Assembly (NCBI RefSeq): GCF_032062105.1
Contig: NW_026930557.1
Coordinates: 62,001-126,000 of the forward strand
Length of the DNA stretch: 64,000 bases
Origin: Saccostrea cucullata
Taxonomy: Eukaryota
Direction: 5' to 3'
The translations under genes were made by a program, and so were the position numbers. Under the pieces are notes generated by a model that saw only the letters and a program-made list of their open reading frames with translations, made no database searches and had not been told where the DNA came from. Below, piece by piece: positions 52,409 to 55,400 of this stretch. Within the stretch, counting starts at the first letter, position 1. Each line of letters opens with the position of its first letter.

Positions 52409-55400
52409 CTACTCATCCCCACCCCCCGTCTCCTCCCCACCCTCCGTGTTTCCTGATGGCTCCTCTTTCTTCTCCGGTTCCTGAGTTTCCTCTTTCTTTT
52501 CACCCTGCAATTAACAAAAAATAATTAATCAAAGGCTATACTCAAAATCAAAATTTAAAGTTACAAAGCTTGACTTTGTATGTATGTAACAACCTTGATT
52601 AAATAAAGTTCATAAATAAAAAATATATGTATATAAAAGTTGTTATTCTGTGCCACCATTAAACTGAGTTACCTGCATGTTAAGAATCTTAAGCAATTCA
52701 CTCAACTTTTTTCACAAAACTCAGTCAAGGAATTTAGAATTTGTCATTTGTTGAAATCTTAATCAAGGTGTAAAGTTTGGTATGAGGCTGAAAAACTTGT
52801 TACAGAGCTTAGAACTTTGTCAGGGAGTTTGGTATTTTGTAAGAAAGCTTTGATCTTATCAGCAAGCTATAAGTCTCCAAGTTTAGAAAAATCAAGTCTC
52901 TTGCAAGTCTTTTGATATTTTCTACATCCCAAACATAAAATGTTGATGTTGAAAGGAAAAGGAAGACAATTCACACACTCCTCATTAATGAAATTGTTAT
53001 TACAGTCACTGTTTATGAGTTCATAATAAAAGTAATTAATTTGTTTATATGAAAGTTGAACTCAATCTTTACACTGTCAGGTCTTCTTTTGACCTTGCTT
53101 GCGATTTACTGTAGTTTCCGCTTTTTGTCATGTTGGAGTTAAATTACGAGAATGAGAATGATGACCTACGAATAATTTAAATATTTCATTTGTCGTGGAG
53201 TGTGGCATTCTTAATTACACACCTCATTTCCTCTCCACGGTTTCCAGCAGAAGTAATATTGTGCAATATATTAAATAATAGATCACAAATAATGACCATA
53301 AATTATGATCCAATTTCAAATTAAAAATAAAATGATATTAATTCTAATTGTTGGAGACATCAGGATTGAGAATCGCACACGGACTACACACAATGGAGAT
53401 GTATGCTAAGTATTGAATGGTTGATCATTTATTCCATGTTTGTATTATTTGTATCAATAGTGCTGCTCTCCTTTGAGAGGTGCGAGGCTGGGTGTGGTCC
53501 CGTCAGTTAATAATCACAGATTTGTCACCCGAGCGCTGAATCAGCCCCGACACAATATGTCAAGTCATTTGTATCATAATGAATTTCTCTTTGGACACGC
53601 CTCCTTGACTTTTATTGACACAGGTTCTGCTATCACCCAGCAGAGAAGTAAATCCCCCTCTAAGAGTATCAATGTCTCATCATTGTCACTGGTAGAATGA
53701 ACAACACCAATGACCCGAAAACAGGCACAGAACATATCAGACCTCCCCTTGTAAAACACAGTCATTAAAGCACTGCTGAAATCATCTCTCAACTCAACCA
53801 TGCAGAAAAATGTCACCTGCTTCAGAAGGCTTATTTAGAAAGAGAGGGAAGCTTGGCGCGTGCAGCTCCTCGCAAGATACACTGGGTGAGTGAGGAATCG
53901 TGGGAAGGCTACATCTGGTTAGCCAGTGGATTCGTCACCCTGGACAGAGCGCATGATGCATCACCTGATCTGTGTCTTTATACCCCGCTAAGTCATTTAG
54001 TTCCCTGAAACCATCTCCCATACTTCACCCAGCAGTACTGACTTCAGAAGGGGACAATTTATTTCTCATTGTTTCTAATCAATCACTTGGTTATTATTTA
54101 CTGTCACCAAAGGAGGCTGAATCTTTTTGCTTTATATATGAATTCTGTCACCTGTTCTCTCTCGTTAGAGTGATTCTTATTAATTTTAATTTTACGAGTA
54201 ATGCAGATATTCATTTTCATAATTTAACAACTAATTGTAAAATTGTCCATAAAGTAGAAATATATAGCACCATCATCAAACCATTTTTTTAACATGTAAT
54301 TTTTAATAGGGGTTATAATTATTTAGCATTTCTAAATATTATAAGTGTACCCGTAATTTATAATACCATGTATGCTTGTAATTTAATTCTATAGTGTTAT
54401 TGCCACAATAAATTATTCCGATGATTATAGACATTGCAATCATTGGGTTAAAAAAAAATGGAAATATGACTATGAAATCCCTACATCCTTTCATCTTAAG
54501 GGCATTTCACCTCATATACAGGTAGCAAACTGCAGAAAAGTCCAGAGAAGTCAAATCTACCCACATTTAGTAGAGCAAATGCATTTATCTTGAGAGGGTA
54601 GTGATGTACCTCAGACTGAATACTGAATCAACAAATTCCAGCTTAATGTTGACACACATTCTATATATATATATATCTATATAGAAGTGGTTGTTTTTGT
54701 TTATATATATCTATATATAAGTGGTTGTTTTTGTTTATTACATTTTCAACAGTGAAATACTGTAATTTATCCATTGAATAAAAGTGATATCCTGTCACAG
54801 TGTGAAAGGATATCAAAATGATATCCTGTCACAGTGTGAAAGAATATCAGAAGTGCGGGAAAACTCTTGATTTTCCTTCCCCTCACCAAAAGTTTGAAAA
54901 AATACTCCTTAGCCTGTTATAAGATAGAAAACGAGTTAGAAAACCATTCTGTCATTAAATAAAACTGCAGAAGTCCCCCAAATATGTTGCTGAAATTCAT
55001 GTTTACAATATTTTTCACTTAGCTATGACGTCTCAACCGCTCAACTATGACGTCATGTAGCCTAAGACTGCATTATGTACAAAAAGACGTAGGCAAAGGG
55101 GAAAATCAAAGAAAATGTAATGAACAGAAAATTTAATGTTTTGTAGTTGAATATGGAATTTATTTCACTTGTGAGACAGGATTTTTTGATATTTTCACTC
55201 GTGCTTCGCACTCGTGAAAATATCAAAAAATCCTGTCCCACTCGTGAAATCAATTTCATATTCAACTACAAAACATTGAATATCCTCTATTTATATATAT
55301 CTATATAAGTGGTTGTTTTTGTTTATATATATCTATATAAGTGGTTGTTTTTGTTTATATATATCTATATAAGTGGTTGTTTTTGTTTATATATATCTAT

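Follow-up and report, generated by a model that had tools for sequence, protein, structure and literature searches.

The binding site of PTF1 is described as an E-box and a TC-box (TTTCCC) separated by either one helical turn or two (PMC2586380); elsewhere the spacing is given as one to three turns (PMC7197352), and in a tested chick enhancer the E-box and the RBPJ site are 5 nt apart (10.1101/2020.12.02.409003). Reviews count vertebrate Prdm13 among the targets of PTF1A (PMC13679780; PMC9545688), in agreement with the preliminary description of the DNA analyzed here, and Prdm13 feeds back on Ptf1a (PMC5576485).

Prdm13 represents an old family (PMC4760075), and several invertebrate systems touch on the same factors. 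A PTF1 reporter is activated by sea urchin Ptf1a in combination with mammalian partners (PMC4880809), Fer1 is a marker of a GABAergic hemilineage in Drosophila (PMC13421315), and Fer1 and Prdm13 are both among the brain neuroblast factors listed for Tribolium, a list of which co-expression is not part (10.64898/2026.08.27.747565). Ptf1a in other invertebrates marks gut acinar-like cells (PMC10396302; PMC12588293) and, together with Meis, dopaminergic cells (PMC6169837), so that inhibitory neurons are not the sole possible setting. Expression of a clam Prdm13-like gene peaks at the blastula stage (PMC10451705), an observation that lends no support to an exclusively late role in neural tissue. 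No report of PTF1 sites at an invertebrate Prdm13 gene was found in the literature searched, a collection that most subscription journals lie outside.

A composite site in the last intron of oyster RSPH3

We analyzed 64,000 nucleotides of the oyster Saccostrea cucullata (contig NW_026930557.1, positions 62,001 to 126,000; hereafter the window), in which Prdm13 is the next gene after RSPH3 on the same strand. A Fer2 gene from this genome shows 100% identity to a protein labelled Saccostrea cucullata, which agrees with this origin of the window. The coordinates of all features are collected in Table 1. The predicted Prdm13 protein contains PR and C2H2 domains (Pfam), and its zinc fingers are 72-88% identical to those of seven compared proteins named PRDM13; the Atlas gave no name for the Prdm13 exon, and the join of exon 1 is predicted. 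On the other side of Prdm13, a QRICH1/DUF3504 gene (35595-36986, plus strand) converges on it and is followed by a 275-aa frame without a Pfam match (38083-38910, plus strand). A copper amine oxidase gene (61877-64000, plus strand), consisting of one long exon with a histidine-rich stretch, is divergent from RSPH3.

Table 1. Positions in the window of the genes, composite sites and motifs discussed in the text
Feature	Position	Strand	Basis or remark
PTF1-type composite CAGATG-N5-TTCCCACG	53899..53917	-	E-box one helical turn 5' of Su(H)/RBPJ site
Su(H)/RBPJ core CGTGGGAA	53899..53906	+	motif match, 8 bases, intact
E-box CAGATG	53912..53917	-	CANNTG word
E-box CACCTG	53814..53819	+	motif match; no change listed in relatives
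E-box CACCTG	53962..53967	+	motif match; no change listed in relatives
E-box CACCTG	54149..54154	+	motif match; near end of compared stretch, where a few differences are unlisted
GC-richer single-copy non-coding block, candidate enhancer	53450..54200		GC content, genome search, indels
Second composite CATGTG-N15-TTCCCACA, two turns	49868..49896	+	about 1.1 kb upstream of Prdm13 TATA box
Third composite CATGTG-N5-TTCCCA, one turn	42707..42723	+	Prdm13 intron 1
Weaker composite CAGCTG-N16-TTCTCA	48773..48800	-	adjoins Prdm13 TATA box
Prdm13 coding span, 430 aa	40416..48665	-	exons 48665-48483, 41760-41520, 41284-40416
RSPH3 coding span, 7 exons, 392 aa	52409..57448	-	Pfam Radial_spoke_3
RSPH3 last intron, 2,946 bp	52505..55450	-	GT-AG; run X4 contig
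RFX X-box-like word GTATCCTGGCAAC	57673..57685	-	upstream of RSPH3

The minus strand at 53917-53899 reads CAGATG TAGCC TTCCCACG, the sole match to the strict pattern in the window. Its E-box is on the 5' side of TTCCCA at a spacing of 5 nt, i.e., about 10 bp from centre to centre. The preliminary description, which had reported this one-turn geometry, also called the RBPJ/Su(H) site perfect. This is true of the complete Su(H)/RBPJ core CGTGGGAA. It is not true of the TC-box CTTCCCACG, which reads CTTCCC and agrees with the published TTTCCC in 5 of 6 positions (PMC2586380).

Further observations of the preliminary description proved accurate. The last of the six GT-AG introns of RSPH3 (135, 113, 129, 390, 148, and 2,946 bp) is unusually long, Prdm13 follows about 5 kb downstream (the site is about 5.2 kb upstream of its TATA box at 48747), and three CACCTG E-boxes surround the composite. 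At least three CACCTG words arose in 5 of 5000 shuffles of 53800-54160, an interval picked by the preliminary description, and the window holds one other such cluster (17060-17139). The block around the site is indeed GC-richer and non-repetitive, with a GC peak of 0.48 in 300-bp windows vs 0.25-0.37 across the remaining intron, and with one match in the genome in a search that ignores very common words. It contains seven TGACA/TGTCA words (1.7 expected), which we presume to be TALE/Meis-like. An Rfam scan of the block gave no family at gathering score, and single-base indels in relatives argue against coding.

A run X4 contig (at least 99% alike) joins across the long intron, with a loose end at 52506. 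Tandem and inverted repeats over about 800 bp (54636-55449) explain part of the intron length. They comprise a MITE-like 79-bp inverted repeat, on the flanks of which lie two arrays built from a single 32-bp repeat and a 34-bp duplicated palindrome (coordinates 55126-55286, 55290-55449, 54636-54765, and 54778-54849); the inverted-repeat region gave weak plant miRNA scores in Rfam, below gathering.

In two close relatives, which are about 94-96% alike, contigs extend over the block at the depth of single-copy DNA. Between 53790 and 54160, 24 substitutions and 6 indels were counted in the three runs covering this stretch (X1, X2, and X10), with 53887-53921 free of change and five differences near piece ends left unlisted. 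With 30 variable places spread over 371 bp, chance would leave 19 bp unchanged 20% of the time (p = 0.20). Compared with its flanks, the block is better conserved in X1 (p = 0.003) but not in X2 (p = 0.72). The invariance of the site in the two relatives is thus weakly compatible with constraint; being non-significant, it also leaves room for a site that arose by chance.

Composite sites at Prdm13 and across the genome

The exact pattern occurs three times in 1.17 Gb, and two of these matches have identical context and are therefore likely to be one locus assembled twice. The relaxed pattern CASMTG-N5-TTCCCACR is found 14 times, vs 18 times for the reversed control. The chance of one relaxed match in a given 40-kb target is about 5e-4, and very many windows were screened. 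Since the motif occurs at chance density, the case rests on its placement, and evidence was sought outside the choice made in the preliminary description.

The other 13 relaxed matches have mixed, unrelated neighbour genes (of 14 frames scanned, names were assigned to 8: peptidase S28, fibrinogen, ankyrin-SOCS, WASH, Usp, zinc finger, LRAT, and a Pao element). The other exact composite (G000:C9415:200329-200347; L002, with L004 in the same context) has the canonical TTTCCC. The distance to an exon of the neighbouring peptidase S28 (Pro-X carboxypeptidase-like) gene is about 100 bp, and the composite could mark a digestive-type target or be a chance match. A wider regulon was not found at the places searched: 80 kb at TfAP2 gave one weak site, equal to the background rate, 40 kb 3' of Ptf1a gave no composite, 20 kb at Fer2 showed no excess, and the neighbours of the other 13 matches formed no set. 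Besides the spliced TfAP2 gene on C8616, the genome has two single-exon AP-2 domain frames (G000:C16368:263484 and C12276:899928).

These results bear on the possibility that a motif of background density happens to lie near Prdm13 and was singled out by a reader aware of the vertebrate story, the block being neutral or serving RSPH3. The genome-wide count that does not exceed its control, the many windows screened, the several motif definitions tried, and the negative flanks of TfAP2 and Ptf1a all speak for such a coincidence. We nevertheless regard it as unlikely, because additional sites were found at the oyster locus and in other animals, outside the initial choice and with spacings set in advance. 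In addition, RSPH3 has an X-box-like word of its own, GTATCCTGGCAAC, its likely ciliary promoter.

The accepted spacings of 4-6 and 15-17 nt were set before these further sites came up. Two of them, at 49868 and 42707, are absent from the preliminary description. In total, the 13.7 kb from 41761 to 55450 hold 3 in-phase TTCCCA composites vs 7 in 816 kb of control DNA; when the index site is left out, two remain vs 0.14 expected (Poisson p = 0.009). With the longer TTCCCAC core, the Prdm13 locus has 2 composites and the 816 kb of control DNA, some of which are duplicated haplotypes, have 1. The loosest definition yields six in-phase sites in the window, four of them within 41761-55450. Flanking other oyster bHLH genes, TTCCCA composites number 4 in 400 kb, with a maximum of 1 per 10-kb piece (40 pieces). 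The lone TTCCCAC match in control DNA is a one-turn CATGTG-N5-TTCCCAC (L185, G000:C9542:212400-213800). Two more GC-richer, regulatory-looking non-coding blocks are present at Prdm13, one upstream (49480-49750) and one in intron 1 (41900-42800), the latter containing the 42707 site.

For other invertebrates, a zinc-finger scan of metagenomes returned 85 relatives, of which 80 were analyzed. Four of the 80 loci, below 65% identity, were left out before grouping, and the 76 at or above 65% form 31 non-redundant groups. Exons were masked, leaving 112 kb, because unmasked counts took in sites inside coding exons. The apparent composites of L060 (at 2836), L131, and L133 were rejected as coding artefacts inside the zinc-finger exon, and the unmasked counts of 10 of 15 pairs and 6 of 31 loci were discarded as inflated by zinc-finger-exon sites in these three loci and in the coral-like L070/L076.

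In the masked loci, 10 of 16 pairs with the E-box 5' of TTCCCA are in phase, vs 21% expected (p = 3e-4), and 3 of 9 pairs with the E-box on the 3' side. For TTCYCAC the corresponding numbers are 6 of 10 and 2 of 5. Downstream DNA of other Prdm13 loci, counted unmasked, has 4 of 8 pairs in phase. A one-turn TTCCCAC site is present in 4 of the 31 loci (L062, L101, L109, and L110; shuffle mean 0.16, at least three in 0 of 400 shuffles), by a narrow definition picked after the matches were seen. Under the preset rule of one or two turns, TTCYCAC gives 4 loci vs 0.76 expected (2 of 400 shuffles) and TTCCCA gives 5 vs 1.4 (4 of 400); counting L109 and L110 once weakens this test to 13 of 400 and 20 of 400, respectively. 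The one-turn site is absent from 27 of the 31 loci in the DNA examined, including 9 of the 11 with more than 6 kb. The E-box of the supporting sites is mostly CACATG/CATGTG or CAGTTG, not CAGATG, and blastn of the non-coding DNA of the oyster window against the 80 metagenome Prdm13-like loci gave no match.

L109 and L110 are divergent, springtail-like loci, the closest protein being from a springtail (53%). Both (L109, 5372-5401; L110, 451-480) carry CATGTG-N16 plus CACATG-N5/N4 before TTCCCACA, i.e., two E-boxes at two turns and one turn, 1.3-2.1 kb upstream of the first exon that the loci have in common, and both have an Rpb7/Rpc25-type gene downstream. Blastn detected no other non-coding similarity between them at E < 0.4; the element, too short for blastn, is present in the tblastx chain. 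This pair may offer a cleaner test case than the oyster site. L101 has three in-phase composites upstream of Prdm13 exon 2, at 1175-1204, 1457-1475, and about 2250-2278.

RSPH3 was found beside Prdm13 in 0 of the 80 other loci, which are mostly short: 7 of the 31 groups extend 10 kb upstream of the zinc fingers, and oyster RSPH3 lies at least 11.7 kb from them. The arrangement with RSPH3 as a bystander may be local to the oyster.

Partner proteins and a model for the site

All three partners of the predicted complex are encoded in the oyster genome. Exons for the BTD of Su(H) are present, as are E-protein-like exons. Ptf1a is represented by its last exon, which contains both tryptophan motifs (HSLSW and TWVPEDP), lies near the start of two contigs (G000:C4357:1671-1976 and G000:C19546; L191, L199), and matches C. 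gigas PTFb1 (PMC5381572, supplement). Neither the bHLH exon of Ptf1a nor an exon of PTFb2, the second Ptf1a-type gene, was found in the oyster assembly as searched, most likely due to an assembly gap. Two protein searches returned solely Fer2 relatives, and a PDB search gave no PTF1A match. The Fer2 proteins (P0001/L011, G000:C21559) end in a conserved tryptophan stretch, ARIAWIKW, which is ARLSW in relatives. Judging from the likeness of this stretch to the first Su(H)-binding motif of Ptf1a, Fer2 might contact Su(H).

We propose, with a probability of a little under 0.6, that Prdm13 is activated, independently of Notch, by a trimer of Ptf1a, an E protein, and Su(H) on this site 5 kb upstream, and that the sites at 49868 and 42707 are its partners. 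The block at 53450-54200 would be a Prdm13 enhancer lodged in the last intron of RSPH3. A Ptf1a/E-protein dimer would bind the CAGATG E-box and Su(H) the adjacent CGTGGGAA site, and the two tryptophan motifs of Ptf1a would join the dimer to Su(H) in a complex that acts without Notch. Prdm13, rather than RSPH3, would be the target, the other two sites would act together with the index site, and the CACCTG words may bring in E proteins and the TGACA words a TALE/Meis cofactor.

About as improbable as a chance match is a genuine Prdm13 enhancer of another kind, in which Notch-dependent Su(H) acts next to an independently binding proneural or Twist-type bHLH factor (Neurogenin, NeuroD, Achaete-scute, Twist) and no Ptf1a trimer forms. 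Proneural and Twist factors likewise prefer CAGATG and CACATG, and the three extra CACCTG boxes would fit such an enhancer. So would the single TTCCCAC match in control DNA, which adjoins what we take to be a Hey-like bHLH gene, Hey-like bHLH genes being typical Notch targets. Furthermore, ectopic ascl1 raises prdm13 in frog (PMC13679780). However, factors that bind independently should show neither a set polarity nor a set phase, whereas E-boxes located 5', one turn or two away, are the ones in excess; no such excess is seen flanking other neural bHLH genes, and the block has a single CGTGGGAA and no paired Su(H) site. Use of the trimer geometry by a different bHLH partner, PTFb2 or Fer2, appears very improbable: C. 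gigas has two Ptf1a-type (PTFb) genes that both contain the HSLSW and WVPE words (PMC5381572), and the end of oyster Fer2 resembles the first motif, but Fer2 lacks the second tryptophan motif, no PTFb2 exon was found in the assembly, and the bHLH domain of PTFb1 is Ptf1a-type (PMC5381572).

Returning to the Ptf1a/E-protein/Su(H) trimer, the preliminary description had suggested that a Ptf1a-Prdm13 circuit operates in a lophotrochozoan, with RSPH3 as a bystander hosting the enhancer. The geometry of the site, the identities of the genes, and the vertebrate precedent stand; "enhancer" and "bystander" are interpretations. The circuit is partly supported, at the level of sequence, by independent lines: the two extra oyster sites, the sites at Prdm13 of other invertebrates, and the partner genes. 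Inhibitory neurons as the cell type of the oyster circuit would be an analogy drawn from vertebrates.

It is possible, although we hold this more tentatively than the model itself, that the bilaterian ancestor already had Prdm13 under the direct control of a Ptf1a/E/Su(H) trimer and that the circuit is more than 550 million years old. If this is true, phase-locked E-box/Su(H) sites at Prdm13 have been kept in molluscs and in hexapods, and the circuit, which in the dorsal spinal cord of vertebrates selects the inhibitory neuron fate, can be followed through its motif geometry past the point where sequences align. Su(H) would then also act without Notch at a target of neural type outside deuterostomes. 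Co-expression is the usual ground on which true protostome homologues of vertebrate neuron-type circuits are debated. A regulatory link encoded in DNA, whose spacing rule a 5-bp insertion would break, is directly testable in oysters and, via the springtail-like sites, in arthropods.

Comparison with known PTF1 systems

If the TGACA words are read as Meis-like, the oyster block combines E-boxes with Meis-like words. The same combination within one block characterizes the coronet cell enhancers of Ciona, where Ptf1a acts with Meis; RBPJ is unmentioned in the available part of that paper (PMC6169837). The sea urchin digestive-enzyme genes resemble the oyster locus in that invertebrate E-box/TC-box sites were predicted by motif, and there Ptf1a is able to act in the complex (PMC4880809). 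In the sea urchin, a deuterostome, the targets encode gut enzymes and knock-down data exist, whereas the oyster target would be a neural-type repressor in a protostome, predicted from the motif.

The regions bound by PTF1A in the vicinity of mouse Prdm13 (for review, see PMC13679780 and PMC9545688) share with the oyster locus the orthologous target and the presence of several sites near the gene. Sequence homology between these regions is not expected, and the oyster locus is likened to them by gene and motif, not by GABAergic fate.

Compared with vertebrate PTF1-J sites, the oyster site has CTTCCC instead of TTTCCC, belongs to a mollusc, lies inside the intron of a neighbouring gene, and is known from sequence. 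Like the autoregulatory enhancer of Ptf1a (PMC7197352) and OC1ECR22 of the chick (10.1101/2020.12.02.409003), it has the E-box 5' of the RBPJ site at 5 nt, i.e., one turn, and, as at these vertebrate loci, there is more than one site per locus. The oyster site is a good candidate for a new representative of the known PTF1-J kind.
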